DNA of 64,000 nt from Minisyncoccia bacterium. Lineage in GTDB: Bacteria; Patescibacteriota; Minisyncoccia; Phycocordibacterales; DATDWN01. Shown in pieces: positions 12,297-53,382 of the stretch (position 1 is its first letter; the number at the start of each line of letters is the position of its first letter). The position numbers and the translations under genes were made by a program. The notes under the pieces were generated by a model that saw nothing but the letters and a program-made list of their open reading frames with translations, did not search any database and had not been told where the DNA came from. The DNA lies in NCBI GenBank assembly GCA_049296855.1, contig JBAQTF010000012.1:1939-65938 (forward strand). The letters run 5' to 3'.

Positions 12297-12325
12297 TAAA
12301 AAAGCGTGGGACTTGCGTCCCACGC
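12297..12325 (-). terminator. Intrinsic terminator at the 3' end of the GC-rich HD gene
   Basis: On the minus strand: GCGTGGGAC-GCAA-GTCCCACGC followed by TTTTTT. It sits 26 nt downstream of the HD gene stop. Confidence 0.75.
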
Positions 12326-12350
12326 CTAATCTGTTTCCGATTGTTCGCCT

Positions 12351-13049
12351 CTACTCTTCCGGGAAGGGGTAAAGTCCGACGCTTTGCATCTCCTCGACGC
12401 ACCGCGACATGAAGTCGCGATAGTAGTCGAAGTATGGCTTACCCATCTCCTTGGCTTTCGGGAGGCGCAACATGTCCTCCCACTCAAGGTTGAACCAGAT
12501 CGCGTCGTAACACGACTGGATATTTCGGAACGTCGTTTGCGGATGTTTCCTACCGAGGTATTTCGGGATGCATGCCGGAATGTTGGGTCGGTGTTGTCCA
12601 CCCCGAATGAGGTTGAGTGCTCCCATGTTCGACAATCGATCTGCATCCTTGAGGGTCACTGTGACAGGGTTGTCCGCGTCACTGTTGCGCATTGAATGCT
12701 CCATCAATGCTTCACGCATGAACATGAGCTCGTCGTTTCTGAACTCCCCAACAGGCAGTAGCCCAAAGTATCGGTCCAACACTTCGCTTGTTTCACTGCC
12801 GAAGTGACGGTCGGTCGAGTGCATGAGTCCAACGACCCAGGTCATCTCGCCGACTCGCGGGGTTTCCGCGATGAGTGCGCTGGTCTGAGCGACCCGAAGG
12901 TCGTGGTCCCAGCCGTGCCCCATGGTTGTCTTTCCTGACGCGACGATGTCCTCGTGAGTCTTCTTCACCGCATCGTATAGAGCTTTGTATTTCGCTCTCA
13001 TTACCACGAATGTGTTGTACAGATACTGCTTTTTAGTCTCTGTTGCCAT
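12351..13049 (-). CDS. HD-domain protein (predicted metal-dependent phosphohydrolase), encoded in a GC-rich island
   Basis: H...HD...H...D pattern (GHGWDHDLRV, GLMHSTDRH, LKDADRL). Local GC is about 55-60% against about 35% in flanking genes. Purine-rich Shine-Dalgarno sequence AAAGGGGGG upstream. Confidence 0.7.
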   Translation of the reverse strand: MATETKKQYLYNTFVVMRAKYKALYDAVKKTHEDIVASGKTTMGHGWDHDLRVAQTSALIAETPRVGEMTWVVGLMHSTDRHFGSETSEVLDRYFGLLPVGEFRNDELMFMREALMEHSMRNSDADNPVTVTLKDADRLSNMGALNLIRGGQHRPNIPACIPKYLGRKHPQTTFRNIQSCYDAIWFNLEWEDMLRLPKAKEMGKPYFDYYRDFMSRCVEEMQSVGLYPFPEE

Positions 13050-13132
13050 CTCGACCCCCCTTTGAAAAAGGTTTTTACCTAGGAAAAGTTCTGTCTGGAC
13101 TCTATCACATTATTATAAAAAAGTCAAATATA

Positions 13133-14143
13133 TTATTTATACAACACTTTCTGCCACTCAATAGTTTTCTTTACCCCAACTTCTAGAGAAACGAAATCTT
13201 TTTTACCAAATTCGTTTTTAACTTTATCCAAATTTAAACTAACGTCTTCTGGTGCTCCAACCAGAGCTTGTTTTTCAGATTTAGGAATATTCACAGGCAC
13301 TTTTAAGTTTTTTCCAATAAGTTTAGCTAAATCAGCAATTGTCGTTCTGGAAATTCCTCCAACGTTATAGATATTGTCTTTTCCTTCTAAAAGTATTTTC
13401 CACATCATCCAGACTGCATCAGTAATATAACAGTATGTGCGGAGAGCCGAGCCGTCGTCCATCATGTTTATTTTCTTCTCTGTTAGAGCGCGGCCGATAA
13501 AAGAATTTAAAACACGCTTATCGTCTTTTTTTGTTCCGGGACCATAAGCTAAAGAAAGCCGCACAGATTTCGCATCTACTCCACTACTACGGAGGGTGGA
13601 GACAATAGCTTCACCACAGCGTTTGGCTTCTATGTAACATGAGCGTGGATGGTCTGTGTTTGTTGTACCGATTTCTGTCTCTTTGAAAGGTGGTTTCGAG
13701 AGTCCACTGTAGACTTCGCTTGTGCTCATGAATAAAAACTTTCCGCTATTATTTAATTTATCAAATAATTTCAAAGTGACAGCCGTGTTCATCTTTATGG
13801 TTTTTAGAGGGTTTTCCATAAATTTCCCTGGCTGACCATATCCTCCCGCATGAATAATAATGTCGGCTTTTGGTAATTTATTTACAAAATCATCATCGCA
13901 TAAGTCTCCCCCTATTACAGTAGCGTTTGCACCCTTAGATATTTCTTCCCAGTATTTTTCTGGTTTACTTTGGCAAACAGCATAAACTTTTACTCCGGTT
14001 TTTAAGAGTCCAGCTAGAAGATATGTTCCGACGAGTCCAGATGCTCCAGTAATCAAAACATTTTTGTTTTTTAATTGTGAAAAATCCACTCCTTTGATTG
14101 AACTTTTTGCGTCATCTATTATTATTTGGGCTAATTTATCCAT
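13133..14143 (-). CDS. NAD-dependent epimerase/dehydratase (SDR family)
   Basis: VLITGASGLVGTYLLAGLL Rossmann motif. Confidence 0.75.
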   Translation of the reverse strand: MDKLAQIIIDDAKSSIKGVDFSQLKNKNVLITGASGLVGTYLLAGLLKTGVKVYAVCQSKPEKYWEEISKGANATVIGGDLCDDDFVNKLPKADIIIHAGGYGQPGKFMENPLKTIKMNTAVTLKLFDKLNNSGKFLFMSTSEVYSGLSKPPFKETEIGTTNTDHPRSCYIEAKRCGEAIVSTLRSSGVDAKSVRLSLAYGPGTKKDDKRVLNSFIGRALTEKKINMMDDGSALRTYCYITDAVWMMWKILLEGKDNIYNVGGISRTTIADLAKLIGKNLKVPVNIPKSEKQALVGAPEDVSLNLDKVKNEFGKKDFVSLEVGVKKTIEWQKVLYK

Positions 14144-15017
14144 TGATTAGTTTCTTTAGTTTTTTATTTATTGCGTTAGGTGTCATTCCTAAATCCTTGT
14201 CGTGTTCTTCTGCTTTACCATATTTTGTCAGAAATCTTTTAGGCATACCAGCATGAACGATTTCAATAGCTTTTCCGGGAAAAGTATTTATCACGTCGGT
14301 GTCTAGTGCTCCTTCATAATAAGGTTCGCATATCAATATTTTATTTCCAGCGAGATTATTTTTTAGTGTCTTCGAGTCAAAAGGGAACAAGGTCGTGTAG
14401 TAAAGTATCGTTACATCTTCTTTTTCTGTCGCCTCTAGGACGGTTTTCAGCATTGGGCCAACAGCTATGACAGTAGCTTTTTTACCTTTTTTCACAACAT
14501 TCGCTTTACCGAATTTAACTTTTTTACTGTTTTCGTTCCCTCTCTCACTCAAACGAAAATAGGTTGGATTACCATCGGCGTAAGATTGTTTAAAAAGAGT
14601 GTCAAATTCCTCTGCTGTTCCCGGGACGATGATTTCCATTCCTGGGATATTTTTTAATATCGCAATGTCAGACGGACAGTGATGCGTTGCGCCAAGTGCT
14701 GCATAGTCATATGATGCACCGACACTGACAAAGTTTCCTCCGAGTTTCTGAAAAGCAAAATCTACTTTAATTTGCTCTAGTCCTCGTTCAACTATAAATG
14801 GGGTAATAGTGTGAACAACTGGTATTAAATTTGTTTTGGCCAGTCCTGCAGCTAGACTGATTGTTGCTTGTTCTAAGATCCCAATGTTATAAACTCGGGT
14901 GGGGTGTTTAGCGAAAGCATTTCTGAATCCAAATACACCAATATCTCCAAGTATCAAAACGAGTTTTTTGTCTTTATCTAGCACCTTCTCTAAAGTTTTT
15001 ACGAATTGTTTTCTCAT
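14136..15017 (-). CDS. Transketolase, C-terminal (pyrimidine-binding) subunit
   Basis: Transketolase Pyr domain and C-terminal domain. The gene is split from the upstream TPP-binding subunit. Confidence 0.75.
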   Translation of the reverse strand: MRKQFVKTLEKVLDKDKKLVLILGDIGVFGFRNAFAKHPTRVYNIGILEQATISLAAGLAKTNLIPVVHTITPFIVERGLEQIKVDFAFQKLGGNFVSVGASYDYAALGATHHCPSDIAILKNIPGMEIIVPGTAEEFDTLFKQSYADGNPTYFRLSERGNENSKKVKFGKANVVKKGKKATVIAVGPMLKTVLEATEKEDVTILYYTTLFPFDSKTLKNNLAGNKILICEPYYEGALDTDVINTFPGKAIEIVHAGMPKRFLTKYGKAEEHDKDLGMTPNAINKKLKKLING

Positions 15018-15030
15018 TATGTCTTTATAT

Positions 15031-22261: not shown

Positions 22262-22384
22262 TGCATTAACTCTGTATATGTGGTACCATATGTGCGTGAG
22301 TGCGCAATGCAGGACGGCTCAGCTGGAATGCAGGTAAGCTCACGAACGAATGTATTACAAGGCCGCCTTCGGGCGGTTTTGTAT
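22262..22384 (+). ncRNA. Candidate structured small RNA or structured 3' UTR ending in a rho-independent terminator
   Basis: A locally GC-rich segment in an AT-rich gap. Duplicated AATGCAGG motifs at 22306-22313 and 22327-22334. Terminal hairpin GCCGCC-UUCG-GGCGG followed by UUUU at 22361-22384. Confidence 0.4.
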
Positions 22385-22572
22385 AAAAACTTCCAGATTT
22401 GGCCAATCTCACCGTCTAAAATTCTCACAAAATTCTCACTGTACGACTTGTACGCCTCGGATTCTGATTCGAATTCTATACGCGACCTTGTCTAAAATCT
22501 GAAAGTTTTTGTAGTTTTCCATATCATTGAGATTTTTTCACATATTAAGTATTATTAATACAATCTTTTGTT

Positions 22573-22643
22573 CCGATAGATGGTTAGCGGTTCGCACTCA
22601 CGTATACATTCGTTGGAGTAAGCCATCGCTAACCATCTATCGG
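22573..22643. repeat. Perfect 17-bp inverted repeat (CCGATAGATGGTTAGCG / CGCTAACCATCTATCGG) enclosing a 37-nt GC-rich loop
   Basis: Read directly from the sequence. Loop segments at 22593-22602 and 22604-22614 are exact reverse complements of 22295-22304 and 22345-22355. Confidence 0.7.
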
Positions 22644-22929
22644 CGCAATTCTCAGTAATAAAAAATTTAAATTTTATTGAACACATTTTTTTGGAGGCTC
22701 TCGGACTGTGACGGTGTAAGAGTGGGTAAAATTTTCTCAAAAAATTTATACGTGCTCAAAAAAATAAATGTTGAGAAAAAATTTAAATTTTAAAAAGTTA
22801 TCCACACTTTTCTCAAAAAAATATTTATTTTATTCTTTTCTGTACTATAATCAATCTAGGTCGCAATAACCAATTTAAAAATAATTTTAATTTAATTATT
22901 TATCACAGAATAATTAACTAATAAACATT

Positions 22930-22992
22930 ATGGCAAAAAAGAAAAAAGCAAAGAAAGCAAAAAAAGCAAAGAAAACAAAGAAACGAGCATAG
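22930..22992 (+). CDS. Possible 20-aa lysine-rich micro-ORF (MAKKKKAKKAKKAKKTKKRA)
   Basis: ATG...TAG ORF over an (AAAGCAAAGAA)n-like simple repeat. No ribosome-binding site, though host genes generally lack one. Confidence 0.2.
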   Translation: MAKKKKAKKAKKAKKTKKRA

Positions 22993-23068
22993 TCTCACTT
23001 TGTTTCGAAAAAATCACAATAAAATTATTGGTTGATTTCAAAAATCTATTTAATATAGGTTTTTGTTT

Positions 23069-36666: not shown

Positions 36667-37368
36667 ATGAAGTATTCGGAAGTTATTTTGGCAATGCAGA
36701 AAAAGTCGAGTCCAAAAAAAGCCAAAGCTTCTGCATGGTTTTTTAAAACAGGTAAGGGGCAATATGGTGAAGGTGATATTTTTATTGGTCTGACCGTTCC
36801 AGAACAAAGAATTATTGCAAAAAAATTCAGTGATTTACCTGTAAACGAAATAGAGAAACTTTTAAAGTCAAAAATCCACGAGCATAGATTTACAGCTCTG
36901 ATTATTCTCGATTTACTTTATCAAAAAAGCGATAAAAAGATTCGGTCAAAAATTGTCGATTTTTATCTATCTCATACAAAATATATAAATAACTGGGACT
37001 TAGTTGACACTTCCGCTAGTTATATATTAGGAGAACATTTATTCAAGAAAAAAAGAGAAATCTTGTATAAGTTAGCAAGATCAAAAAATTTGTGGGAGAG
37101 AAGAATCGCTATTATTTCCACAGGTTATTTTATATCCAAAAATGATTTCAAAGACACGATAGAGATTTCGAAGTTATTGCTCTCCGACAAACAGGACTTG
37201 ATTCACAAAGCTGTTGGCTGGATGCTTCGTGAAGTGGGGAAGAGAGATGAAAAAGTTCTGGTAAAATTTCTCGACAATTTTATAAAGAAGATGTCACGAA
37301 CTACTTTGCGCTATGCAATAGAAAGATTTCCCAAAAAGAAAAGATTATATTATTTAAATATTAAATAA
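36667..37368 (+). CDS. DNA alkylation repair protein (AlkD-like HEAT-repeat glycosylase family)
   Basis: ASAWFFKTGKGQYGEGDIFIGLTVPEQR...NNWDLVDTSA...LWERRIAI...AVGWMLREVGKRD pattern. Confidence 0.65.
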   Translation: MKYSEVILAMQKKSSPKKAKASAWFFKTGKGQYGEGDIFIGLTVPEQRIIAKKFSDLPVNEIEKLLKSKIHEHRFTALIILDLLYQKSDKKIRSKIVDFYLSHTKYINNWDLVDTSASYILGEHLFKKKREILYKLARSKNLWERRIAIISTGYFISKNDFKDTIEISKLLLSDKQDLIHKAVGWMLREVGKRDEKVLVKFLDNFIKKMSRTTLRYAIERFPKKKRLYYLNIK

Positions 37369-37376
37369 TATAAAAA

Positions 37377-37414
37377 GGGCTGGGTACGTTGTTTGGAAAC
37401 GTACGAACCAGCCC
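37377..37414 (-). terminator. Hairpin terminator at the 3' end of GC-island 2 (minus-strand orientation)
   Basis: GGGCTGGGTACGT...ACGTACGAACCAGCCC stem (7+6 bp), followed on the minus strand by TTTTT. Confidence 0.6.
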
Positions 37415-37434
37415 TTGTGGTGGACGACGCTCGG

Positions 37435-37656
37435 TCATGACGCCTTCCTCTCCTGCGTTTTGTGACGAATGATGAGGCGCGCAACCTCAGTCACCATTTC
37501 TGACTTCTCGGGTTCTTTGATGAACCCCGCGGATTCGACCGCTGCATTCAAGATCTTGTTGTATCTTGGAGCAAAGAGTCGACCCTCAGTGGTCAGGACT
37601 TTTTCACATTCCCTGATCACTTTCAAAGCGATTTCACCAGCGTTCAAAATAATCAC
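37435..37656 (-). CDS. Small hypothetical protein (about 70 aa) in GC-island 2
   Basis: GC-rich ORF with an AGGAGGTG Shine-Dalgarno sequence. The track start at 37656 is a GTG that overlaps that sequence. A TTG at 37647 gives 8-nt spacing. No family recognised. Confidence 0.45.
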   Translation of the reverse strand: MIILNAGEIALKVIRECEKVLTTEGRLFAPRYNKILNAAVESAGFIKEPEKSEMVTEVARLIIRHKTQERKAS

Positions 37657-37720
37657 CTCCTTTTACTCTGGCTAGAGTTTACCATTCTAAATTTTTTTGT
37701 AAAGAGCTTATAAAAAGGAA

Positions 37721-37743
37721 GGCTCGTCGTATTACGACGAGCC
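37721..37743 (-). terminator. Perfect 10-bp hairpin between the two island-2 genes (possible internal terminator/attenuator)
   Basis: GGCTCGTCGT-ATT-ACGACGAGCC, followed on the minus strand by TTCCTTTTTAT. A second small hairpin CCTAGC-GATG-GCTAGG is adjacent. Confidence 0.5.
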
Positions 37744-37759
37744 TTTGACCTAGCGATGG

Positions 37760-37966
37760 CTAGGTAACTTCTTGTTCAGGGCCCTTGCGAGAAGCATTTC
37801 TCCTCGCGTTTGCTGCCCGAGAGAGGGTTGACATCGCCTGGTATACGTTTTCGTTTCTCCCAGCGTATCTCTTTACTACCTCGAGCATGAGGTTCCTATA
37901 GTCTCTGTCTGGGTACCTTTGACGCAAGTCTCGGAGCTCGTTCAACATCCGGTCTGTAATGACCAT
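37760..37966 (-). CDS. Small hypothetical protein (68 aa) in GC-island 2
   Basis: ATG start preceded by AAGGAGGG at 6-nt spacing. GC-rich. No family recognised. Arg-rich C-terminus. Confidence 0.5.
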   Translation of the reverse strand: MVITDRMLNELRDLRQRYPDRDYRNLMLEVVKRYAGRNENVYQAMSTLSRAANARRNASRKGPEQEVT

Positions 37967-37991
37967 AGCGGAGCCCTCCTTCTAGGGAATA

Positions 37992-38021
37992 ATTATACTA
38001 CATTAACAGGGCTTTTGTCAA
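37992..38021 (-). promoter_or_regulatory. Consensus sigma70 promoter TTGACA-N18-TATAAT driving the island-2 genes
   Basis: Minus-strand TTGACA at 38021-38016 and TATAAT at 37997-37992, about 25 nt upstream of the ribosome-binding site. Confidence 0.6.
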
Positions 38022-38056
38022 CTACTTAATCCACAGGCAATTCACATCTTATCCCA

Positions 38057-40687: not shown

Positions 40688-40716
40688 TTGACACGTTAGG
40701 TATTCGTTGTTAGTTT
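40688..40716 (+). promoter_or_regulatory. Promoter TTGACA-N17-TAGTTT for the island-3 gene
   Basis: Read directly from the sequence. It is followed by the Shine-Dalgarno sequence AAGGAGG at 40726-40732. Confidence 0.45.
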
Positions 40717-40739
40717 GTGTTGAGAAAAGGAGGTTGTAC

Positions 40740-41201
40740 ATGGGACATCCGAATCTGTCGGACGGGTTGAATAGATTGATTGATGCCACAGATATACCTG
40801 GAGCTACTTTGGAACTTCGAGAAGTCAAGGTCGGCCAGATCATCAAGGTCGTTTTCGGTGACGAGGGAAAGAAAACTTCTCTCACAATTCGCATCGACAA
40901 GCCAGCTGGTAAAGGGTGGGGTGAGGATTCAGCACTCGGGACCATTCTCGCAGTTGAACTTCAACCAGACAAAGTGGAGTCATTTCGGAAAGTTGATCTT
41001 CCTATTCCACCTATTGGTGAGAAATGTGCGCTTTTCTGTGCTTGTACACGAAACCCTGGGGCTCCATTTGGTATGACGATGTTACACGTTCATCATCTTA
41101 CCAAAGGGAGGCACTTCAGTTGGACAACCCGTCCAAATACCAACAATGAAATCGGGTGGCTTTTTCCAGAAACAGTCTCTGGCTGGTCAGTGCATGGCTA
41201 G
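40740..41201 (+). CDS. Hypothetical protein (153 aa) in GC-island 3
   Basis: ATG at 40740 with a perfect AAGGAGG Shine-Dalgarno sequence at 7-nt spacing. GC about 48-50%. No family recognised (contains CALFCAC...HVHH). Confidence 0.55.
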   Translation: MGHPNLSDGLNRLIDATDIPGATLELREVKVGQIIKVVFGDEGKKTSLTIRIDKPAGKGWGEDSALGTILAVELQPDKVESFRKVDLPIPPIGEKCALFCACTRNPGAPFGMTMLHVHHLTKGRHFSWTTRPNTNNEIGWLFPETVSGWSVHG

Positions 41202-41218
41202 TACGAGACGCGCGAATT

Positions 41219-41274
41219 GGTCGGAGGAATTGGCCTCCGACCATGAGGCACACTTAGTGTGCTTTTTTGTTTTT
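41219..41274 (+). terminator. Tandem hairpins terminating the island-3 gene
   Basis: GGTCGGAGG-AATTGG-CCTCCGACC, then GCACAC-TTA-GTGTGC followed by TTTTTTGTTTTT. Confidence 0.7.
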
Positions 41275-42655
41275 AAAACGAGTTAAAATCTTTGTCGGCG
41301 TGTTGTTTATCTATACTCTGAAAAGTAGCTTTCTTTTCGTTGAAAAATAGTTCCACTTTTCCGGTCTCACCATTTCTATGTTTTTCAATTAAAATTTCTG
41401 CGATGTTTGTCTTTTCTGCTTCTTCTTTGTATTTATCTTCACGGTGGATGAACATTACTACATCTGCATCCTGTTCGATTGATCCAGAATCTCGAAGGTC
41501 AGATAGGCGAGGACGACCACCACGGGCTTCAACAGCTCGAGATAGCTGTGATAGAGCTAGGACAGGGACATCGAGTTCACGAGCCAGGTTTTTTAAAGCA
41601 TGAGATATTTCTGTAGTTTGCTGTACTAGGTTGTCGTTTTTGGTTTGTGTTGGGACCATCAGTTGTAAGTAGTCCACAACAATAAGTCCGAGACCTTTTT
41701 CACTTTTCAGACGACGGGCGATTGAGCGCATCTTCAAAATATTATTTCCGGGTTGGTCGTCGATATAAATAGGTGCCTTACTTAGCTTATCAAGTGAGCT
41801 TTTGATTGCGTCAAAGTCACCTTGACGAGAAAGTTTTCCTGTTCGTAGTTTCCAAGCGTCAACGTTTGATTGTGCAGCGAGCATACGATCAACCAATTGT
41901 TGGGAAGACATTTCTAGAGAGAAAATACCGACAGGAATATTATGGTTGACAGCAGCCTGACGAGCAATATCGAGGGCTAGGGAAGTCTTTCCTGTACTAG
42001 GTCTTCCAGCAAGTATAATTAAATCTGATTTTTGTAAACCAGAAAGTTTGTTATCAATGTCCGTAAATCCAGTCGGTATTCCTCGCATACCATTACCGTC
42101 TGTGTGTAGTCTATCAAGCCTTTCCCACGCTTCAGCCAGTTCATCTTTGATAGGAACGAATTTATGTGAAGTGTTGAAGTTAGTAACATCAAAAAGTTTT
42201 TTCTCAGCATTATCAAGCATTTCTTCGAGTTCTTTATTTTCATCATAACCAATTTGAGAAATGTGATCTGAGGCCTCTATGAGACGCCTCATCATGTGTT
42301 TTTTTTGGACGATAAGAGCATAGTACCCGATGTTTGAAGAAGAAGGAACAATATTTACAATCTCTGTTAGATAGGTATTGCCTCCGACTTGGTCAAGCCA
42401 GCCTTTCTCTGACAATCTCGAAGAAACAGAGAGTAAATCAATCGGTGAACGCTTTGTAAAAAGTTCCATCATCGTTTCATAAATGATGTGATGTTTTTCG
42501 GAATAAAAAGAATCATGAGCAACTATTTCTGTAATATCATAAAGTGCTTCTGGACGAAGCATTATAGAACCAAGTAGCGCCATCTCTGCCTCCAAGTTTT
42601 GTGGAGGTATTCGCATTCTATTCTGTACCATCTGAGTTATTACAGTTTGAACCAT
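41273..42655 (-). CDS. dnaB: Replicative DNA helicase DnaB
   Basis: DnaB N-terminal domain plus RecA-like domain with Walker A motif GRPSTGKTSLALD. Confidence 0.9.
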   Translation of the reverse strand: MVQTVITQMVQNRMRIPPQNLEAEMALLGSIMLRPEALYDITEIVAHDSFYSEKHHIIYETMMELFTKRSPIDLLSVSSRLSEKGWLDQVGGNTYLTEIVNIVPSSSNIGYYALIVQKKHMMRRLIEASDHISQIGYDENKELEEMLDNAEKKLFDVTNFNTSHKFVPIKDELAEAWERLDRLHTDGNGMRGIPTGFTDIDNKLSGLQKSDLIILAGRPSTGKTSLALDIARQAAVNHNIPVGIFSLEMSSQQLVDRMLAAQSNVDAWKLRTGKLSRQGDFDAIKSSLDKLSKAPIYIDDQPGNNILKMRSIARRLKSEKGLGLIVVDYLQLMVPTQTKNDNLVQQTTEISHALKNLARELDVPVLALSQLSRAVEARGGRPRLSDLRDSGSIEQDADVVMFIHREDKYKEEAEKTNIAEILIEKHRNGETGKVELFFNEKKATFQSIDKQHADKDFNSF

Positions 42656-42725: not shown

Positions 42726-44075
42726 CTAACGAGGGGTGACCAACGTGCCCAAAGGAGTATCCTTCACCTTAAAGCCAAAAGACTCGATTTTCTCTCGAAT
42801 TTCGTCACTTTTTGTGAAATTTTTATTATTTCTAGCTTCATCTCGCTCTTTTATGAGATTTTTAACGTTTTCTGGAATTTCAAACTCTACTTTTTCATTA
42901 AGTTTTAAGCCAAGTACTCGGTCAAAATCTAGCACTAGTTCTTTTCTAGTTCCTTCTCCCAGTTCCTCATCTCTTAGGACTTGCCAGACTAAAGCCAAGG
43001 TTTTCGGCATATCCAAATCATTATTTATACCATCTTCAAATTCAGTTTTATATTTTTCCGCCAAACTTTGACCCAATTTTCCATCTCCTAGACTTTGAAA
43101 TTTTTCTCGCAGTCTTCGTAGTGCAGTCTCACTACCCTCAAGTGCTTCCCAAGTGAAGTTTAAAAGAGTTGAATAGTGTGAACCTAAAACAAAATATCGA
43201 TATGCTAGAGGACTAATTTTTTTATTTTTAATATCTTTCAGAGTAAAAACATTTCCAAGAGATTTGGACATTTTTTTCCCGTCGATAGTAATAAATCCTC
43301 CGTGAATCCAATAATGTACAAAAAGTTTTCCAGTTACTGCTTCTGACTGAGCAATCTCATTTGTATGGTGGGGAAATATAAGGTCAGACCCACCAGTGTG
43401 TATGTCCAGAGTTTCTCCCAAATTAGTCATGGACATTGCAGAACACTCAATGTGCCAACCAGGCCTACCTTTTCCGAACGGTGCGTCGTAAACTACATTA
43501 CCATCTTCCGGTGTGTAGAATTTCCACAATGAAAAATCTCTCGGATTGGTCTTGTCATAATCGTCGTTTACAATACGTTCTTTCGTAGTGTTTTCTAAAT
43601 TAAGATTTGCTAGTTTCCCGTATCCTTTTGATTTTCCAATATCAAAATAAATACCATCAGAGCTTTTGTATGCAGTCCCGTTCATTAACATTTTCTCAAT
43701 CAGAGAAATCATATCCGCTATACTCTCTGTTGCTCTTGGAGTTTTGTTTGCATTTTTGATATTTAATGATTTCAAATCTTCAAAAAACAAATCCTCGTAT
43801 TTTCTAGTCAGACTCTTCAAATCAATTTTTTCTTCCTGACTCCGCCTTATAGTTTTGTCATCAACATCCGTGATGTTCGTCACACTGTTTACTTTATATT
43901 TATTGTATTCAAACATCCTTCTCAATATGTCAGATAGAATAAACGTGCGAAAATTTCCTATATGAGCATAGTCATAGACTGTTGGTCCACAGTTGTACAT
44001 GCTAACTTGCCCCTCTATCAAAGGTACGAATTTCTCCTTATTCCCTGACATCGTGTTGTGTAAGTAAATATCCAT
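42726..44075 (-). CDS. cysS: Cysteine--tRNA ligase
   Basis: MYNCGPTVYDYAHIGN (HIGH-like motif) and KMSKSLGN. Confidence 0.9.
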   Translation of the reverse strand: MDIYLHNTMSGNKEKFVPLIEGQVSMYNCGPTVYDYAHIGNFRTFILSDILRRMFEYNKYKVNSVTNITDVDDKTIRRSQEEKIDLKSLTRKYEDLFFEDLKSLNIKNANKTPRATESIADMISLIEKMLMNGTAYKSSDGIYFDIGKSKGYGKLANLNLENTTKERIVNDDYDKTNPRDFSLWKFYTPEDGNVVYDAPFGKGRPGWHIECSAMSMTNLGETLDIHTGGSDLIFPHHTNEIAQSEAVTGKLFVHYWIHGGFITIDGKKMSKSLGNVFTLKDIKNKKISPLAYRYFVLGSHYSTLLNFTWEALEGSETALRRLREKFQSLGDGKLGQSLAEKYKTEFEDGINNDLDMPKTLALVWQVLRDEELGEGTRKELVLDFDRVLGLKLNEKVEFEIPENVKNLIKERDEARNNKNFTKSDEIREKIESFGFKVKDTPLGTLVTPR

Positions 44076-45073: not shown

Positions 45074-46303
45074 ATGGGTAATAACTTCTTTAAATACCGT
45101 ACCTACGTCCTAATATCCCTCCTTGTTCTCGGAGGTGTATTTTTTTCTGGCTATTATTTTGGGAAGAGCAACAGTTCTGACCAAGATAAAGTTTTTACAT
45201 TAATAAATAAAACTGCTACTACGACTGGGGAGGTGGACTTTTCTCCGTTCTGGAAAGCATGGAATGTTATTGATGATAAATATGTTCCGTCAAGCACCAC
45301 AGCAAAAGAAATAAGTAGCCAAACACGAGTTTACGGTGCTATCGAAGGAATGGTCAAATCTCTTGGAGATCCGTACACTATTTTTTTTCCACCAGTTGAG
45401 TCAAAAAGTTTTAGTGAAGAAATAAAAGGTCAGATAGAGGGTGTTGGTATGGAAGTTGATATTCGAGAGGGGGTTCTGACTGTTATTGCTCCGGTCAAAG
45501 ATACACCGGCATACAGAGCTGGTATAAAATCTGGTGATAAGATTTTTAAGATTGGTAGTAAATCTACTGAGAATCTAAATACACAAGAAGCCATAGCTCT
45601 TATTCGTGGTCCTAAGGGGACTTCGGTCACTCTTACAATATTTAGAAAAGATATAAAGGAGCCATTTGAGTTAAGTATGATTCGTGACGTTATAAATATT
45701 CCTACCGTTGATACTGAAACAAAAGGTGATGTGTTTATCATACATTTGTATAGTTTCTCTTCCATTTCTCCAAACCTTTTCCGTAACGCTCTTCGGGAGT
45801 TTGTTGAATCCGGTAAATATAAAATGATTATTGATCTGCGGGGTAATCCTGGCGGTTACCTCGAGGCTGCACAAGATATGGCTTCATGGTTTCTACCTAC
45901 TGGTAAAGTGGTTGTTAGTGAGGATTTTCGAGATAAAAGTAAAAACGAAATTTTCCGAAGCAAAGGTTACAACATTTTCAATGATAAACTTAAACTCGTA
46001 GTCCTTATTGATGGTGGTTCAGCAAGTGCTTCAGAAATTTTGGCTGGAGCTTTGCATGACCACGGAGTAGCAACTCTTGTTGGTGTTCAGTCGTTTGGTA
46101 AGGGTTCTGTGCAGGAACTCATTGATATTACTTATGATACATCACTCAAAGTAACTGTCGCAAAATGGTTAACTCCAAATGGAATTTCAATCTCTCATCA
46201 AGGACTAACCCCAGATATTATTGTAAAACTTGATGAGGAGAAGTTTAAAAAAGATAGGACAGATACACAAATGTTGAAGGCATTGGAGATTCTTTCAAAA
46301 TAG
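45074..46303 (+). CDS. S41-family C-terminal processing peptidase (CtpA-like) with PDZ domain
   Basis: PDZ (GDKIFKIGSKST) and catalytic GNPGGYL...SASASEILAGAL. Confidence 0.85.
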   Translation: MGNNFFKYRTYVLISLLVLGGVFFSGYYFGKSNSSDQDKVFTLINKTATTTGEVDFSPFWKAWNVIDDKYVPSSTTAKEISSQTRVYGAIEGMVKSLGDPYTIFFPPVESKSFSEEIKGQIEGVGMEVDIREGVLTVIAPVKDTPAYRAGIKSGDKIFKIGSKSTENLNTQEAIALIRGPKGTSVTLTIFRKDIKEPFELSMIRDVINIPTVDTETKGDVFIIHLYSFSSISPNLFRNALREFVESGKYKMIIDLRGNPGGYLEAAQDMASWFLPTGKVVVSEDFRDKSKNEIFRSKGYNIFNDKLKLVVLIDGGSASASEILAGALHDHGVATLVGVQSFGKGSVQELIDITYDTSLKVTVAKWLTPNGISISHQGLTPDIIVKLDEEKFKKDRTDTQMLKALEILSK

Positions 46304-46307
46304 GTTA

Positions 46308-46346
46308 GTCGGGTGAGTATCTCCAGTCTGGAGACACTCACCCGAC
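46308..46346 (+). terminator. GC-rich hairpin downstream of ctpA
   Basis: GTCGGGTGAGT...ACTCACCCGAC is an 11-bp stem with an internal CTCCAG-TC-TGGAG mini-palindrome. No clean U-tract follows. Confidence 0.45.
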
Positions 46347-46375
46347 CCCCACAAATTTTGTGTTAAGATATAAAT

Positions 46376-46819
46376 ATGAAAATAATATTACTTAAAGATA
46401 TTGCTAAGGTTGGACGAAAGTATGATATAAAAGATGTCGCTGAAGGTTTCGCTTTAAACATGCTTATCCCACGTGGAGTAGCACAGATTGCGACACCGGG
46501 AGCCATAAAGAAAGTCGAGGAGATGAAATCTCGTGACATGACAGATAGAAAAATCCAGGAGGAGCTTTTGTTGAAAAATCTTGAGGTCATAAAAAATCTG
46601 AAAATAAATCTCAAAGAAAAAGCTAGTGATAAGGGTCACTTGTTTGCCGGAATTACAAAAGAAATGCTTGTTTCGGAAATTTTAAAGTCAACCAGACTGA
46701 ATCTTGATCCAGAATCAATTAAGTTAGCTAAGCCAATAAAAGAAGTTGGGGAACATTTCATTGCTGTTGAAGCCTTAGGTAAAAAAGCAGAATTTACTCT
46801 CAAAATCGAAGCAGAATAA
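46376..46819 (+). CDS. rplI: 50S ribosomal protein L9
   Basis: MKIILLKDIAKVGRKYDIKDVAEGFALNMLIPRGVA is the bL9 N-domain. Confidence 0.9.
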   Translation: MKIILLKDIAKVGRKYDIKDVAEGFALNMLIPRGVAQIATPGAIKKVEEMKSRDMTDRKIQEELLLKNLEVIKNLKINLKEKASDKGHLFAGITKEMLVSEILKSTRLNLDPESIKLAKPIKEVGEHFIAVEALGKKAEFTLKIEAE

Positions 46820-46820
46820 A

Positions 46821-46866
46821 ACACCCAACACAAACTCTTCCCGGAGGTTTGTTTTGTGTTGGGTGT
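46821..46866 (-). terminator. Hairpin terminator (14-bp stem) at the 3' end of the island-4 gene
   Basis: ACACCCAACACAAA ... TTTGTGTTGGGTGT. On the minus strand it is followed by TTTTATT. It overlaps the rplI 3' flank. Confidence 0.6.
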
Positions 46867-47066
46867 CACGTTCTTGCTTTTAGGTGAGATGGGGTTGAGA
46901 GTTCTCGAAGTCTTCGACATTTCTCACAACCCTTGTCCGTCGGTTCACCCGGGCAAGGTTTTCCGTGAGGACAGTTGTGTTTTATGGCATTTGTCCCGTG
47001 GCTTTTTGTGTTGCGGACTTGAGATCCGCAACCCAAACATGTGACGTAGGTCTCAGGTCTTCCCAT
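46866..47066 (-). CDS. Small Cys-rich zinc-ribbon-like protein (66 aa) in GC-island 4
   Basis: MGRPETYVTCLGCGS...HNCPHGKPC...KGCEKCRR carries two CxxC pairs plus C/H residues. The ATG is preceded by AAGGAG at 7-nt spacing. GC-rich. Confidence 0.5.
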   Translation of the reverse strand: MGRPETYVTCLGCGSQVRNTKSHGTNAIKHNCPHGKPCPGEPTDKGCEKCRRLRELSTPSHLKART

Positions 47067-47090
47067 GGCTGATCTCCTTTTCTCAAAACA

Positions 47091-47112
47091 AAATAGCACT
47101 GAAGTGCTATTT
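47091..47112 (-). terminator. Terminator hairpin downstream of rpmA
   Basis: AAATAGCAC-TGAA-GTGCTATTT. On the minus strand it is followed by a T-rich tract. Confidence 0.6.
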
Positions 47113-47137
47113 TGTAAAATCATGATTCCAATTATTT

Positions 47138-50224: not shown

Positions 50225-50252
50225 GATTAATCCCGTTAGAGTTAATAAAGTT

Positions 50253-50513
50253 ATGTTTTACACATATATATTAAAAAGCAATAAAAATGGTAGATTATAT
50301 ACTGGTAGTACAAATGATTTACGGAAACGTCTTAAGCTCCATAATGACGGTAAGTCGAATTATACAAAAAAACATACACCGTATGAACTTATATATTATG
50401 AAGCTTGTTTAAATGATCATGATGCTAGAGTAAAAGAGATATATTTGAAAAGTGGTATGGGTAAGAGGTATATTAATAATCGCTTGAAGAGTTTCCTAAC
50501 TCTAACGGGATGA
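50253..50513 (+). CDS. GIY-YIG nuclease-domain protein (UPF0213/YhbQ-like)
   Basis: FYTYILKS...GRLYTGSTNDLRKRLKLHN shows the GIY..YIG motifs plus the conserved Arg. An 86-aa stand-alone domain. Confidence 0.75.
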   Translation: MFYTYILKSNKNGRLYTGSTNDLRKRLKLHNDGKSNYTKKHTPYELIYYEACLNDHDARVKEIYLKSGMGKRYINNRLKSFLTLTG

Positions 50514-51793: not shown

Positions 51794-51798
51794 AAAAT

Positions 51799-53043
51799 AT
51801 GCTTAAGCTAATAAAACAATCAATCAAAGCTCTCTCTGCGAATAAAGCTCGTACCTTACTTACCATGCTCGGTATTGTCATAGGTATTGCAACTGTAGTT
51901 ATGGTTCTCTCGGCTGGTGCAGGTTTCCGAAGTCTTATTGATTCGCAAATAGCGACGCTAGGGAGTAACACTCTTTTTATTCAAGTGCGCATTCCACCAA
52001 CAACTAAAAATCGTGCAGCTAACTCCCAAGGTCCAGGAGCTGCTTTTTCTGGTGTTACAATATCAAGTTTTAAACAGCGAGATTTAGACGATATAAAAAA
52101 ACTAGAAAACGTCGTGGGGGCGTATGGAATTGTCTCTGGACAAGCATCGGCTAGTTATAGAGCAAATAAAAAAACAGCTATTTATTATGGAGCGGGTGCA
52201 GAAAGATTTAGTATTGATAAAACAAAACTGTCTTCTGGAAGGTTCTACTCACAAAGTGAAGATAACTCAGGTAGCCAAGTCGTTATTTTGGGAAGTAAAA
52301 TAGCTACCGATTTATTTGGTCAAGACGACCCGATTGGTAAGCTTCTTCGTATCGGCACATTGAACTTTCAAGTTATTGGTATACATGAACCACAAGGAGC
52401 AATAGGTGAAAACGATAATTTATTGTTTATTCCACTTATCACCGCACAGAAAAAACTATTAGGTGTAGACTATTTTTCGATTGGGGTCGTTGCTTTACAA
52501 GATATAAATGCTGGAGATAGTACAGCCGAGCAGATAAAAATACTAATGCGTAGTAACCACTCTATTACAAATCCTGACAAAGATGATTTTACTGTTAAAA
52601 CTCAAGCTGAGGCACTTGAAACATTCAACACAATTTTCAGTGGCTTAACATATTTGCTTATCGCAATCGCAGCTATTTCTCTAGTTGTTGGGGGAGTTGG
52701 AATTATGAATATTATGTATGTTGTTGTTACAGAACGTACTGCCGAAATAGGTTTGAAAAAAGCAGTTGGTGCAAAAGAATCTGATATTTTAAATGAATTT
52801 TTGCTTGAAGCCATTCTAGTCACTGTTTTCGGGGGTATTATAGGTATCGTTTTCGGCTCATTACTTGGTTACATCGTTTCACTTATTGCTGCTTCACAAA
52901 ACTTAGCTTGGACTTTCATAGTCCCGATTTACGCAATGGTTTTGGCGTTTGGAGTTTCGGCAGCTATTGGTATTTTCTTTGGAGTTTTTCCAGCTCGTTC
53001 GGCTTCGAAAATGGATCCTATCGAAGCATTGAGGTATGAATAA
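51799..53043 (+). CDS. ABC transporter permease (FtsX/MacB-like), paralogue
   Basis: Same architecture as the preceding permease (GVGIMNIMYVVVTERTAEIGLKKAVGA). Confidence 0.85.
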   Translation: MLKLIKQSIKALSANKARTLLTMLGIVIGIATVVMVLSAGAGFRSLIDSQIATLGSNTLFIQVRIPPTTKNRAANSQGPGAAFSGVTISSFKQRDLDDIKKLENVVGAYGIVSGQASASYRANKKTAIYYGAGAERFSIDKTKLSSGRFYSQSEDNSGSQVVILGSKIATDLFGQDDPIGKLLRIGTLNFQVIGIHEPQGAIGENDNLLFIPLITAQKKLLGVDYFSIGVVALQDINAGDSTAEQIKILMRSNHSITNPDKDDFTVKTQAEALETFNTIFSGLTYLLIAIAAISLVVGGVGIMNIMYVVVTERTAEIGLKKAVGAKESDILNEFLLEAILVTVFGGIIGIVFGSLLGYIVSLIAASQNLAWTFIVPIYAMVLAFGVSAAIGIFFGVFPARSASKMDPIEALRYE

Positions 53044-53051
53044 AAAAGAGA

Positions 53052-53069
53052 CCACCCGGTTAAGGGTGG
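53052..53069. terminator. Hairpin CCACCC-GGTTAA-GGGTGG shared by the permease operon (+) and the island-5 gene (-)
   Basis: A-run upstream and T-rich downstream on the plus strand. T-run on the minus strand. It overlaps the last codons of the island-5 ORF. Confidence 0.6.
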
Positions 53070-53335
53070 CCTTTGTCTGATGGTTTTTTAAACCACTTGC
53101 TATTGGTGCGAAGATCTTCCACGACCGCCGAGTCCATTCCGAGCAGTTCGTAGGCGGTTCGTGCTTCTGCGTCCCCGATCTCTTTTTTTGTCCAACAGTA
53201 GTCGATTGCTCCTAGAACACAAGCTTGAGCCGATCTGAGCCGACCTTCTTCAAGGAAGATGTCTACACAGAGTTTACCTTCCTCGTTGAGGTATACCTCG
53301 GCCAGCTGTTTAATGGTCGCTTTATCTGCATTCAT
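53060..53335 (-). CDS. Hypothetical protein (91 aa) in GC-island 5
   Basis: ATG preceded by GGAGGTG. GC about 50%. No family recognised (LCVDIFLEEGRLRSAQACVLGAIDYCW). Confidence 0.5.
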   Translation of the reverse strand: MNADKATIKQLAEVYLNEEGKLCVDIFLEEGRLRSAQACVLGAIDYCWTKKEIGDAEARTAYELLGMDSAVVEDLRTNSKWFKKPSDKGHP

Positions 53336-53353
53336 AAACCCACCTCCATTAGT

Positions 53354-53382
53354 GTTATATCTTATATTAACATGATTGTCAA
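53354..53382 (-). promoter_or_regulatory. Near-consensus promoter TTGACA-N17-TATAAC for the island-5 gene
   Basis: Minus-strand TTGACA at 53382-53377 and TATAAC at 53359-53354, about 20 nt upstream of the ribosome-binding site. Confidence 0.55.

Follow-up and report, generated by a model that had tools for sequence, protein, structure and literature searches.

A handful of short, GC-rich genes lies scattered among AT-rich genes that almost entirely lack Shine-Dalgarno (SD) sequences, and this locus raises the question of where these genes came from and whether they share one history. The window analysed here is the whole stretch of 64,000 nucleotides taken from contig JBAQTF010000012.1 (GenBank assembly GCA_049296855.1). 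An initial annotation had interpreted five segments of it as one recently acquired set. The interpretation that we favour, and that we consider reasonably probable, is that they are self-contained accessory modules of mixed ages, drawn from a flexible pool of genes that probably lies within the Patescibacteria. Each module would be monocistronic, with a sigma-70-type promoter, a short leader carrying a canonical SD, a GC-rich ORF and, at its end, an intrinsic terminator, within a genome of AT-rich, SD-less bulk genes. The modules do not have one common history. Their source would most likely be an accessory pool that is probably exchanged among Patescibacteria whose GC contents differ, rather than phages, plasmids or one remote high-GC organism, and their integration would have left no recognisable mobility signature.

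Composition and expression signals of the cassettes

The overall GC content of the window is 0.360 (36%), and a GC scan with a sliding frame of 120 nt (mean 0.360, sd 0.062) revealed exactly five intergenic GC-rich blocks of 47-53% GC, containing six ORFs in total (Table 1). These blocks agree in their coordinates with the five segments of the initial annotation. There is also a sixth GC-rich stretch (1978-2746), located within a native Gly-rich ORF (GC2 0.61, GC3 0.18), which was rejected as an island because its GC content is driven by its amino-acid content.

The island proteins are enriched in Gly, Ala, Arg and Pro and have a high Arg/Lys ratio. When amino-acid composition was controlled, the expected GC3 of the island ORFs was 0.25-0.32, and all of them stood above this native expectation (z=3-13), which bears out the claim that their codon usage is unlike that of the host. 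The z-scores of the native genes have an sd of 1.26 and a maximum of 3.05, and therefore the codon signal of I4 is borderline. The GC3 values (0.42-0.68) and the C3/G3 patterns vary widely among the cassettes, which argues for several sources or ages.

A strong SD precedes all six island ORFs but, among native ORFs 60 aa or longer, only 1 of 63 (Fisher p=5.8e-8). The motif has a background of 2.4% per 17-nt window. SD-led islands amid SD-less native genes were thus confirmed. Sigma-70-like hexamers and GC-stem/T-tract hairpins were found for every cassette, in agreement with the promoters and terminators initially credited to them, and their description as distinct, self-contained SD-led units in intergenic gaps can be upheld. 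Comparable promoters and terminators are also found on native genes, and therefore these signals are not foreign per se.

Table 1. GC-rich blocks, cassettes and their predicted expression signals (coordinates of the window).
Feature	Coordinates	Strand	Details
I1 block	12267-13062		53% GC
I1 cassette	12296..13127	-	HD-superfamily phosphohydrolase
I1 ORF	12351-13049	-	232 aa; GC3 0.68, z=13.0
I1 promoter	13127-13099	-	TTGACT-17-TAGAGT with TG
I1 SD	13056-13061	-	GGGGGG
I1 terminator hairpin	12302-12327	-	followed by T-tract
I2 block	37357-38027		47% GC
I2a cassette	37377..37703	-	
I2a ORF	37435-37647	-	70 aa, TTG start; GC3 0.58, z=6.2
I2a alternative start	37656	-	GTG
I2a promoter	37703-37676	-	TTTACA-16-TAAACT with TG
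I2a SD		-	AAGGAGGTG
I2a terminator hairpin	37377-37414	-	
I2b cassette	37719..38021	-	
I2b ORF	37760-37966	-	68 aa, Arg-rich; GC3 0.58, z=5.1
I2b promoter	38021-37992	-	perfect consensus TTGACA-18-TATAAT
I2b SD		-	AGGAGGG
I2b terminator hairpin	37719-37745	-	
I3 block	40716-41308		47% GC
I3 cassette	40688..41274	+	
I3 ORF	40740-41201	+	153 aa; GC3 0.42, z=4.0
I3 promoter	40688-40693 (-35)	+	TTGACA, 17 nt, then TG-extended TAGTTT
I3 leader	40714-40732	+	TTTGTGTTGAGAAAAGGAG
I3 terminal hairpins	41218-41241, 41245-41265	+	followed by T-tract
I4 block	46819-47115		47% GC
I4 cassette	46821..47118	-	
I4 ORF	46866-47066	-	66 aa, Cys/His-rich; GC3 0.42, z=3.0
I4 promoter	47118-47090	-	TTTACA-17-TATTTT
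I4 palindrome	47088-47115		perfect 13-bp, operator-like; overlaps promoter
I4 leader	47092-47074	-	TTTGTTTTGAGAAAAGGAG
I4 hairpin	46821-46866		common to convergent rplI (L9) gene
I5 block	53013-53355		48% GC
I5 cassette	53049..53382	-	
I5 ORF	53060-53335	-	91 aa; GC3 0.49, z=4.4
I5 promoter	53382-53354	-	TTGACA-17-TATAAC
I5 SD	53347-53340	-	GGAGGTGG
I5 terminator hairpin	53049-53072	-	also terminates upstream MacB-like gene

An HD phosphohydrolase in a glycan cluster

The I1 product can be assigned by motif, profile and predicted fold to the HD-superfamily phosphohydrolases, as first proposed, and among them to the YpgQ/SE1688/YedJ type. Residues H45, H49, H77, D80, H118, D135 and D137 are invariant in the I1 family, and D50 is present in at least 90% of the sequences. 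The AF2 model (pLDDT 93) gave 2qgs, 5dqv, 2pjq and 3gw7 as best Foldseek matches, and the family profile recovered 2qgs (E=8e-10) and 5dqv (E=3e-7) from the PDB; searches of Pfam, PHROG, NCBIfam and PADLOC gave no match. I1 shares with the YpgQ/SE1688/YedJ enzymes (PDB 5dqv, 2qgs, 3gw7) the H..HD..H..H..D ligand pattern, an all-helical fold and a size of about 210-230 aa, with profile E-values from 8e-10 to 1e-2. However, it differs from them in an identity of only about 15% (TM 0.44-0.48) and in the ties of its family to a nucleotide-sugar/glycan cluster, and it did not match the Pfam HD model at E<=0.1.

The family comprises 23 plus 17 relatives, and most of the loci with readable flanks adjoin epimerase/Gmd-type glycan genes, often a split transketolase pair. 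The divergence of I1 is congruent with that of its flanks (r=0.97, 10 genome pairs), a correlation that can hardly tell vertical descent apart from same-clade replacement. Homologues with an equal GC excess are syntenic in related genomes, next to the split-transketolase and epimerase genes, a finding that the initial annotation had itself counted against acquisition, and the recent import proposed for I1 was not sustained. I1 would instead be a long-standing, independently transcribed member of the cluster, which contains a split transketolase-like pair and NDP-sugar epimerase/dehydratases, and its substrate is probably a phosphorylated intermediate or a nucleotide of this pathway.

The smaller cassettes

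The I3 product belongs to an uncharacterised family of about 30 relatives with the motifs HPNLSP and GACTKNP..G.TM..H.IT.GR. The four contexts read (L021, L022, L040 and L041) all differ, and each provides a promoter, an SD and a terminator. The presence of the family as a stand-alone unit in unrelated contexts points to horizontal mobility. An identical 19-nt leader is common to I3 and I4 (2 matches vs 0.02 expected), and therefore both cassettes are linked by origin or regulation. The proposal of one linked set thus stands for this pair, but not for I1, which co-diverges with its glycan neighbours.

The I4 ORF was called by no gene caller. The zinc-ribbon identity suggested for its product had the Cys/His spacing as its sole basis and is not retained. 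I2b forms a cluster with no other member; it was called in Logan assemblies only and is not called in the deposited MAG annotation. Neither I2a nor I2b matched family libraries, PDB or viral sets, and no I4 homologue was found; the searches for these three covered family libraries, PDB sequences, viral contigs and the compared loci. For I5, no relative was found in 5.8e9 proteins by a word-indexed search, a method that missed the I3 family, and no match in phage, viral and PDB sets. Because I2a and I2b are adjacent and have equal GC3, they probably arrived together.

The closest syntenic relative (locus L018) is collinear with the window from DnaB to the rhodanese gene, with protein identities of 49-88%. 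Its L9/L27 gap measures 62 nt, vs 318 nt in the window, and its MacB2/rhodanese gap 57 nt, vs 381 nt, so that both the I4 and the I5 sites are empty. Since I4 and I5 are missing at the same sites, they are, as judged from this alignment, lineage-specific additions; the empty sites could in principle be deletions in L018 instead of gains in the window. Acquisition, as initially claimed, is supported for I4 and I5 and for the non-syntenic I3 family, but not for the syntenic I1.

Origin of the cassettes and related systems

Over host GC contents of 0.31-0.53, the I1 homologues exceed their flanks in GC content in 19 of 22 backgrounds; in none do they fall below them. The excess persists even in the GC-richest backgrounds seen (0.53), and thus pure horizontal transfer plus amelioration would need an unsampled reservoir with a GC3 of 0.84 or more. 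The excess could have arisen because orthologues from GC-richer relatives replaced the gene repeatedly, or because selection acts on its composition. Synonymous sites are saturated in most I1-family pairs; in the pair formed by the window and L023, residual synonymous identity is found in I1 only (z=3.4; flanks -0.7 to 1.2), which is compatible with a subsequent exchange involving a GC-richer relative.

This excess, maintained despite flank-congruent divergence and mostly saturated synonymous sites, would suit a native class kept by selection: a GC-rich, SD-led, monocistronic minority under a separate expression regime, for example SD initiation on structured stable mRNAs or a ribosome subpopulation with accessible anti-SD, its GC excess being no trace of foreign origin. 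We regard this explanation as possible, although rather doubtful. It gains from the SD being kept, strong or moderate, at 13 of 19 I1 loci, where nearby genes are almost never SD-led, but the other six homologues have none. The same signature is borne by a second GC-rich, SD-led family common to L007 and L023 and by three cassettes of L036 (35% GC) with anatomy identical to those of the window, and at other loci the GC3 offset is slightly higher in SD-led than in non-SD ORFs (Mann-Whitney p=0.002, with a noisy classifier). However, I3 relatives show little GC excess within their own genomes, the closest syntenic relative lacks I4 and I5, and no relatives of I2a, I2b, I4 and I5 were detected in the resources searched, which is odd for a conserved functional class. 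Moreover, the I1 family conserves no overlapping reading frame, the I1 leader of ~50 nt is unstructured (z=+0.8; RNA structure not significant), and we know of no mechanism selecting for +0.2 to +0.4 in GC3.

The initial proposal, a single recent set from one high-GC, SD-using donor (host, partner or phage) that would make up a scattered toolkit for accessory, defence or anti-defence roles, appears unlikely. The raised GC content and strong SD of all six ORFs, the leader common to I3 and I4, and the absence of I4 and I5 from L018 are in its favour, but it conflicts with the synteny and co-divergence of I1 in many genomes and with the disparate GC3 and C3/G3 of the cassettes. No donor, whether high in GC or not, was found for any of them, and the known relatives of I1 and I3 sit on contigs of 31-53% GC that are themselves mostly SD-less. 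No phage relatives were found in IMG/VR, INPHARED and BFVD, no plasmid relatives were found, and the PADLOC search for defence systems gave no match; neither the phage source nor the toolkit was substantiated. Direct repeats, terminal inverted repeats, integrases and tRNA junctions were not found at the islands.

GC-rich intergenic regions in AT-rich genomes are the classic signature of structured RNAs, and some of I2a, I2b, I4 and I5 might be non-coding RNA genes with incidental ORFs, which would agree with their lack of homologues and with the borderline, uncalled I4 ORF. This is very improbable, since each of these ORFs has a strong SD 6-9 nt ahead of its start and a terminator immediately after its end, no Rfam match was obtained even at E<=1, I5 has a coding-like GC1>GC2, and I1 and I3, of the same anatomy, are proven protein families.

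Finally, an artefact (chimeric assembly, GC-richer contaminant reads or engineered insertion), to which the sharp GC boundaries and textbook signals such as the I2b promoter (12/12 to consensus) might point, is effectively refuted, because all ten island junctions are spanned at 100% identity in an NCBI MAG contig (GCA_049297715.1, Minisyncoccia MAG; 151 kb) and, independently, in the Logan assemblies of the runs SRR28011841, SRR28011690 and SRR28011830, and matching anatomy is found in unrelated public contigs of other studies (L036, L004, L007, L010, L011, L023). The cassettes are genuine chromosomal sequence in the genome of an uncultured groundwater bacterium of the Minisyncoccia (Parcubacteria, CPR), and the engineered or chimeric insertion once suggested is excluded.

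Regarding the favoured pool of accessory modules, most of the detectable horizontal transfer into Patescibacteria has other members of the phylum as its source (PMC12455944). The contigs with I1 and I3 relatives are probably patescibacterial too, to judge by the genes they carry, their paucity of SDs and their resemblance to the window.

Among known systems, phage morons (Juhala/Hendrix) are reportedly extra genes of atypical composition, with their own promoter and terminator, between conserved prophage genes. The cassettes resemble them in combining one or two small ORFs with a promoter and a terminator, in a composition unlike their flanks, in an intergenic placement that leaves the neighbours undisturbed, and in the absence of I4 and I5 at the equivalent site of a related genome. 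In contrast to morons, they are flanked by cellular housekeeping and glycan genes (rplI/rpmA, dnaB/recR, MacB, gmd) and not by prophage, no phage relatives of them were found, and I1 keeps its position in many genomes. Acquired genomic islets and ORFans also have atypical composition and codon usage, short, uncharacterised proteins and a patchy distribution, here that of I3, I4 and I5. However, the cassettes are single genes with complete expression signals, without the integrase, tRNA or direct-repeat hallmarks of islets; ORFans are usually AT-rich whereas the cassettes are GC-rich, and the I1 family co-diverges with its neighbours and yet stays compositionally atypical in almost all genomes.

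The Bacteroidia are SD-poor, yet their rpsU keeps a strong SD. The window is similar to them and to SD-poor Parcubacteria in that its bulk genes have no SD and a small minority is strongly SD-led; unlike rpsU, this minority is accessory, GC-rich and partly lineage-specific, and has no known tie to ribosomal-protein autoregulation. Only 48% of the 16S genes of Parcubacteria were found to have the anti-SD motif (PMC9297842). If this lineage belongs to the approximately half of Parcubacteria without it (PMC9297842), the SDs of the cassettes would not function as assumed. On the signals described here, each cassette would be independently transcribed and translated by SD-dependent initiation, unlike the adjoining genes.

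Anatomy and composition of the cassettes

The overall GC content of the window is 36.0%, and a scan with a 120-nt sliding window (mean 0.360, sd 0.062) recovered five intergenic GC-rich blocks, named islands I1 to I5 (see table), at coordinates matching the five segments singled out by the initial annotation. An additional GC-rich stretch, not listed there, lies within a native 548-aa ORF whose product contains a Gly_rich_2 domain and a K1-capsule-lyase C-terminal domain (K1-lyase_C). The GC-richness of this stretch comes from the amino acids of the encoded protein (GC2 0.61 vs GC3 0.18), and the gene carries about 19 GGAGG motifs on its own strand.

Location of the cassettes and of other features discussed in the text (block limits and GC contents of I1 to I5 from the sliding scan)
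Feature	Position	Strand	Product or length	GC
I1 block	12267-13062			53%
I1 ORF	12351-13049	-	232 aa
I2 block	37357-38027			47%
I2a ORF	37435-37647	-	70 aa
Terminator hairpin between I2a and I2b	37719-37745
I2b ORF	37760-37966	-	68 aa
I3 block	40716-41308			47%
I3 leader	40714-40732	+	19 nt
I3 ORF	40740-41201	+	153 aa
I4 block	46819-47115			47%
I4 ORF	46866-47066	-	66 aa
I4 leader	47074-47092	-	19 nt
I4 promoter inverted repeat	47088-47115
I5 block	53013-53355			48%
I5 ORF	53060-53335	-	91 aa
Glycine-rich native ORF	1202-2848	-	548 aa
GC-rich stretch in the glycine-rich ORF	1978-2746
Small RNA gene candidate	22286-22384	+	~99 nt
Hairpin near the small RNA candidate	22560-22660
Mini-ORF upstream of secA	22931-22993	+	20 codons
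CysS gene	42726-44075	-
Match to Rickettsia sRNA47	45998-46108	-
Hairpin 3' of the CtpB-like gene	46307-46347
GIY-YIG ORF	50253-50513	+	86 aa	0.30
L036, cassettes	5940-7210 and 8960-9590		three cassettes
L007, second family	5423-6193	-		0.64
L023, second family	10009-10848	-		0.61

Sequence reading and a consensus scan located a TTGACA-like -35 and a TAnnnT -10 hexamer in every block (a perfect 12/12 for I2b), and in every block a GGAGG-type Shine-Dalgarno (SD) sequence lies in the leader, 6-9 nt 5' of the start codon. Each unit consists of one ORF followed by a GC-stem/T-tract hairpin, the block at 37.4-38.0 kb being two tandem units (I2a and I2b) with a terminator in between. Thus, the proposal that the cassettes bring their own promoters and terminators agrees with predicted, consensus-level hexamers and hairpins for 6/6 ORFs. 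The strong ribosome-binding sites were also confirmed, a strong SD being present in 6/6 island ORFs vs 1/63 native ORFs (Fisher p=5.8e-8; background motif frequency 2.4% per window). Hairpin terminators are not restricted to the islands: the native CtpB-like peptidase gene is directly followed by a 19-bp perfect GC-rich hairpin, which makes a strong terminator.

The codon usage of the islands was examined by comparing the observed GC3 with an expectation from simulations in which the island proteins were encoded with the codon preferences of native genes. Island GC3 exceeded it by 3.0 to 13.0 sd, while the native genes showed an sd of 1.26 and a maximum of 3.05. Hence the island ORFs differ from native genes when amino acids are controlled, I4 being borderline. 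Their proteins are rich in Gly, Ala, Arg and Pro and poor in Phe, Tyr, Met, Ile, Asn and Lys, with a high Arg/Lys ratio. C3 and G3 are both elevated in I1, I2a and I2b, which rules out translational selection for NNC over NNU as the cause of their GC content; in I4 and I5 it is chiefly C3 that rises.

The islands are not an assembly artifact. The exact I1, I2b, I3 and I5 proteins are present on NCBI contig JBAQUU010000002.1 (GCA_049297715.1, 'Minisyncoccia bacterium', 151 kb) and recur in Logan assemblies made independently from SRR28011841, SRR28011690 and SRR28011830. These contigs match the window at 100% identity and between them cover both junctions of 5/5 islands, leaving no support for the engineered or chimeric insertion that had been considered. 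I2a, I2b and I4 lack a gene call in the deposited MAG annotation; the Logan gene calls include I2a (in a 73-aa GTG form) and I2b, and I4 was never called.

The I1 family and its neighbourhood

The single I1 sequence had no match in Pfam or NCBIfam at E<=0.1, and NCBI names its product 'HD domain-containing protein'. We found 23 relatives with 40-74% identity. Residues H45, H49, H77, D80, H118, D135 and D137 are invariant across 20 I1 homologues, and D50 is conserved in at least 90%, a pattern that agrees with the HD metal-ligand motif (H...HD...D). The family profile matched solved HD hydrolases, among them SE1688 (2qgs, E=8e-10), YpgQ (5dqv, 3e-7), Lin1889, BH2835 and YedJ; the PDB entries 3b57 and 2pq7 were matched at 5e-7 and 7e-7. 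The confident AF2 model (pLDDT 93.2) contains ten helices, and its best Foldseek matches in the PDB are HD proteins that the profile also finds, with a probability of 1.00 but a TM of only 0.44-0.48 (E=3e-3). Motif, profile and predicted fold therefore bear out the HD phosphohydrolase assignment at the superfamily level.

In most loci with readable flanks, I1 relatives adjoin genes of the NDP-sugar epimerase/GDP-mannose-dehydratase type, and a split transketolase-like pair is also present at several of them, including the window. This conserved neighbourhood suggests a connection of I1 to a glycan pathway. At every locus the I1 gene forms a unit apart from its neighbours, with promoter-like hexamers and a terminator of its own.

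Five genomes with common transketolase/epimerase genes allowed the divergence of I1 to be compared with that of its flanks in 10 pairs. Between the window and locus L023 the three flanking proteins share 75/78/70% identity and I1 74%; the corresponding values are 78/81/69% and 70% for L004, 61/61/52% and 56% for L010, and 56/61/52% and 48% for L011. Overall, the identity of I1 follows that of its flanks (Pearson r 0.97, 10 pairs). Homologues of the same GC content are thus syntenic in related genomes, which the initial annotation itself had regarded as a sign of ancestral genes, and its claim of recent acquisition does not hold for I1. A simple recent insertion does not describe I1.

In spite of this congruence, the composition of I1 departs from its surroundings in nearly all backgrounds. 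In the five genomes its GC3 (0.61-0.83) is higher than that of the flanks (0.29-0.65), and considering all loci, I1 is GC-richer than the flanks in 19 of 22 backgrounds, equal in three and poorer in none, over a host GC range of 0.31 to 0.53. Among 19 distinct I1 loci the SD is strong in 10, moderate in three and missing in six, while an SD is almost never found on neighbouring genes in the contigs carrying I1 relatives.

Several explanations for this GC content were considered. Since I1 relatives exceed their flanks even in the GC-richest hosts encountered (0.53), pure transfer and amelioration would need an unsampled reservoir with a GC3 of at least 0.84, and selection on composition is a live alternative. 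An excess of synonymous conservation in I1 was seen with a pooled-composition null and mostly disappeared with a null that permutes codons within families. The exception under the permutation null is the window-L023 pair (I1 z=3.4 vs -0.7 to 1.2 for the flanks), which hints that the I1 gene of the window split from an L023-like, GC-richer lineage more recently than the genes around it. This signal points to orthologous replacement of I1 within the clade, a process that would likewise produce a congruent identity ranking. None of the alternative frames stays open consistently among family members, which makes an overlapping gene unlikely, and a riboswitch-like leader is ruled out, the leader being unstructured (z=+0.8).

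The same anatomy was found in other contigs. L036, an unrelated contig of 35% GC that stems from a different study, encodes a 32%-identical I1 relative and contains three sharply bounded cassettes, each with promoter, SD and terminator, that harbor the I1 homologue (62% GC), a 99-aa Dabb-domain protein (Pfam E=2e-10; 54% GC) and a 177-aa ORF (53% GC). Another family that is GC-rich and SD-led is common to L007 and L023 (67% mutual identity; GC3 0.82 and 0.78, respectively; flanks 0.52 GC); at both loci it is encoded on the strand opposite to the I1 homologue, at a distance of about 4 kb, and it has no match in Pfam. On these layouts, the cassette phenomenon is general beyond the window.

The I2 to I5 cassettes and their sites

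The analysis of I4 and I5 was helped by L018 (Candidatus Paceibacterota SMAG_U8125, 42% GC), found by scanning GTDB genomes with CysS (three loci). It is collinear with the window at 41.3-54.3 kb and covers the sites of I4 and I5, those of I2 and I3 falling outside the comparison. The shared proteins are DnaB (86% identity), CysS (49%), CorA (69%), CtpB (68%), L9 (66%), L27 (88%), p133 (55%), HlyD (65%), ABC (86%), MacB1 (78%), MacB2 (80%) and rhodanese (70%). Across the shared 12.8 kb L018 has no GC-rich block. The gap between the convergent L9 and L27 genes measures 62 nt in L018, with one bidirectional hairpin, vs 318 nt in the window, where it holds I4. Similarly, the MacB2/rhodanese gap measures 57 nt in L018 vs 381 nt in the window, where it holds I5. 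Since the equivalent sites are empty, the recent acquisition of I4 and I5 is upheld; the parsimonious reading is that both were gained in the window lineage, loss in L018 being the alternative.

Two further genes of this region also deserve mention. A stand-alone GIY-YIG ORF (Pfam E=4e-15) of native GC content separates the gene of the ABC ATPase from that of the first MacB-like permease, and these two genes abut in L018. This missing counterpart marks the ORF as a separate, presumed insertion of native-like composition. CysS shares less identity with its L018 counterpart than all neighbouring proteins do (49% vs 55-88%) and may have been replaced by a xenologue in one lineage.

I2a, I2b, I4 and I5 had no relatives in the resources searched. 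A word-indexed search returned no relatives for I3 and I5, a false negative in the case of I3, for which exhaustive HMMER found about 30, and because this family had been missed, the 'ORFan' status of I2a, I2b, I4 and I5 is provisional. The four contexts read for I3 relatives are all different: one adjoins a glycoside hydrolase, one a Mu Gam gene and one dapB/dapA, and one has no recognisable neighbour. Each has promoter, SD and terminator, and its GC content hardly exceeds, if at all, that of the 40-55% GC genome around it. The differing contexts and the low GC excess fit an accessory gene that is mobile and reached the window genome (36% GC) from a mid-GC source. Recent acquisition is plausible for I2 and I3.

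I3 and I4 have an identical 19-nt leader, TTTGTNTTGAGAAAAGGAG, a pattern picked post hoc that gives 2 matches vs 0.02 expected by chance, suggesting that these cassettes are linked by origin or regulation. Between the -35 and -10 boxes of the I4 promoter there is a perfect 13-bp inverted repeat (ACAAAATAGCACT..AGTGCTATTTTGT) that looks like an operator. I2a and I2b were considered as a type II toxin-antitoxin pair, which was rejected given the terminator hairpin and the separate promoter between the two ORFs; no toxin or antitoxin family matched them in Pfam, PHROG, NCBIfam, PADLOC or the PDB.

In a search against Rfam 15 only four tRNAs reached the gathering score, and the islands were empty even at E<=1. 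The sub-threshold match to Rickettsia sRNA47 (35 bits vs a gathering score of 60, E=6e-6), located inside the CtpB-like coding region, is probably spurious. A GC-richer intergenic segment, containing a long hairpin and a GC-stem/T-tract terminator (MFE -45.1 kcal/mol, z=-4.7), had no Rfam match even at E<=1 and is a candidate small RNA gene. Nearby lies a near-perfect hairpin (z=-9.0 and -7.0 on the + and - strands, respectively) whose stem measures 17-19 bp. Its loop (CGCACUCACGUAUACAUUCGUU) is, by eye, reverse-complementary to two stretches of this candidate, and the hairpin could be an antisense partner of it or a partial duplicate in inverted orientation. A lysine-rich mini-ORF (MAKKKKAKKAKKAKKTKKRA) is found upstream of secA, in a gap of 800 nt.

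Origin and biological meaning of the cassettes

Among bacteria, the Patescibacteria (CPR) form a large uncultured share of the diversity; their genomes are reduced and their ribosomes unusual. The cassettes are probably a heterogeneous set of accessory genes, each in a self-contained module, that come from a flexible gene pool within this group. Of the acquired-cassette reading first proposed, the predicted autonomy and the foreign-looking composition stand, and so does recent arrival for I4 and I5, but not for I1. In 125 aquifer Patescibacteria most detectable transfers came from other Patescibacteria (PMC12455944), in agreement with the cassette relatives found. The anti-SD motif was detected in only 48% of Parcubacteria 16S genes, and SD helices have been suggested not to form in that subgroup (Tsurumaki et al. 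2022, PMC9297842), which would account for the SD-less native genes and makes the strong SDs of the cassettes noteworthy. GGAGG occurs in native coding sequence at a ratio of 0.82-0.84 (z about -2), a test of SD avoidance that is an indirect proxy for an active anti-SD. A check for 'leaderless' mRNAs revealed -10-like boxes just 5' of some native start codons, with no clear positional peak.

A different view is that Parcubacteria with SD-less, possibly anti-SD-less, translation keep a class of accessory genes set apart by being monocistronic, GC-rich and SD-led, whose composition and SD would be held by selection or biased exchange rather than being a transient foreign trace. The I1 family would be its exemplar, being GC-richer in 19/22 backgrounds while co-diverging with its neighbours. 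We consider this view unlikely.

Turning back to acquired modules, a close known element is the phage moron, which, like the predicted cassette units, has its own promoter and terminator around few ORFs. A moron also differs in composition from its flanks and is absent from the same site in related genomes; of these two traits, the distinct composition is seen in all cassettes and the absence in I4 and I5, I1 being syntenic instead. However, a moron sits between phage genes, whereas the cassettes are flanked by cellular genes (rplI/rpmA, recR/dnaB, MacB/rhodanese, DNA-alkylation/YqeY and glycan enzymes). The phage source initially suggested is not supported, since IMG/VR (scanned with family alignments for I1 and I3 and with the four small proteins), INPHARED (tblastn with I3 and I5) and BFVD (fold search with I3) yielded no relatives. 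Among PLSDB plasmids, I1 found only a remote 26%-identity HD protein and I3 nothing. A single high-GC, SD-using donor also lacks support, the C3/G3 patterns differing enough among the cassettes to speak against one source. Integron cassettes are promoterless ORFs with an attC site, arrayed by intI/attI; here the units are dispersed, each with its own promoter, and their 3' hairpins, unlike attC, are T-tract terminators of unrelated sequence. Classical genomic islands have an integrase, a tRNA junction and direct repeats, which the cassettes lack: there is no integrase near them or within the window, none abuts a tRNA gene (the four tRNAs lie at 28.4, 28.8 and 36.1-36.3 kb), and no flanking direct or terminal inverted repeats exceed chance-level AT-rich matches. 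Transposon-like ends or target-site duplications were also sought, none being convincing. No significant match was obtained for any of the six island proteins in Pfam, PHROG or NCBIfam, and the dispersed defence toolkit once envisaged is not supported, with 0 PADLOC families at E<=0.1 for all six.

These results provide candidate accessory genes, including a new HD-hydrolase family with a putative link to a glycan pathway and a protein family whose confidently predicted fold has no match among solved or viral structures. The cassettes also offer a natural test of whether SD-dependent initiation persists in SD-less lineages. Moreover, they pose an evolutionary puzzle, i.e., one gene family that is GC-richer than its surroundings across hosts of 31 to 53% GC. 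If this is due to repeated transfer from GC-richer relatives, it would be an ordinary, though tidy, case of single-gene horizontal transfer; if not, it would point to compositional selection or to a separate expression regime. Should a maintained gene class exist after all, two translation-initiation regimes would operate side by side in reduced genomes, and a force not described so far would hold specific genes 10-25 GC points above their genome.
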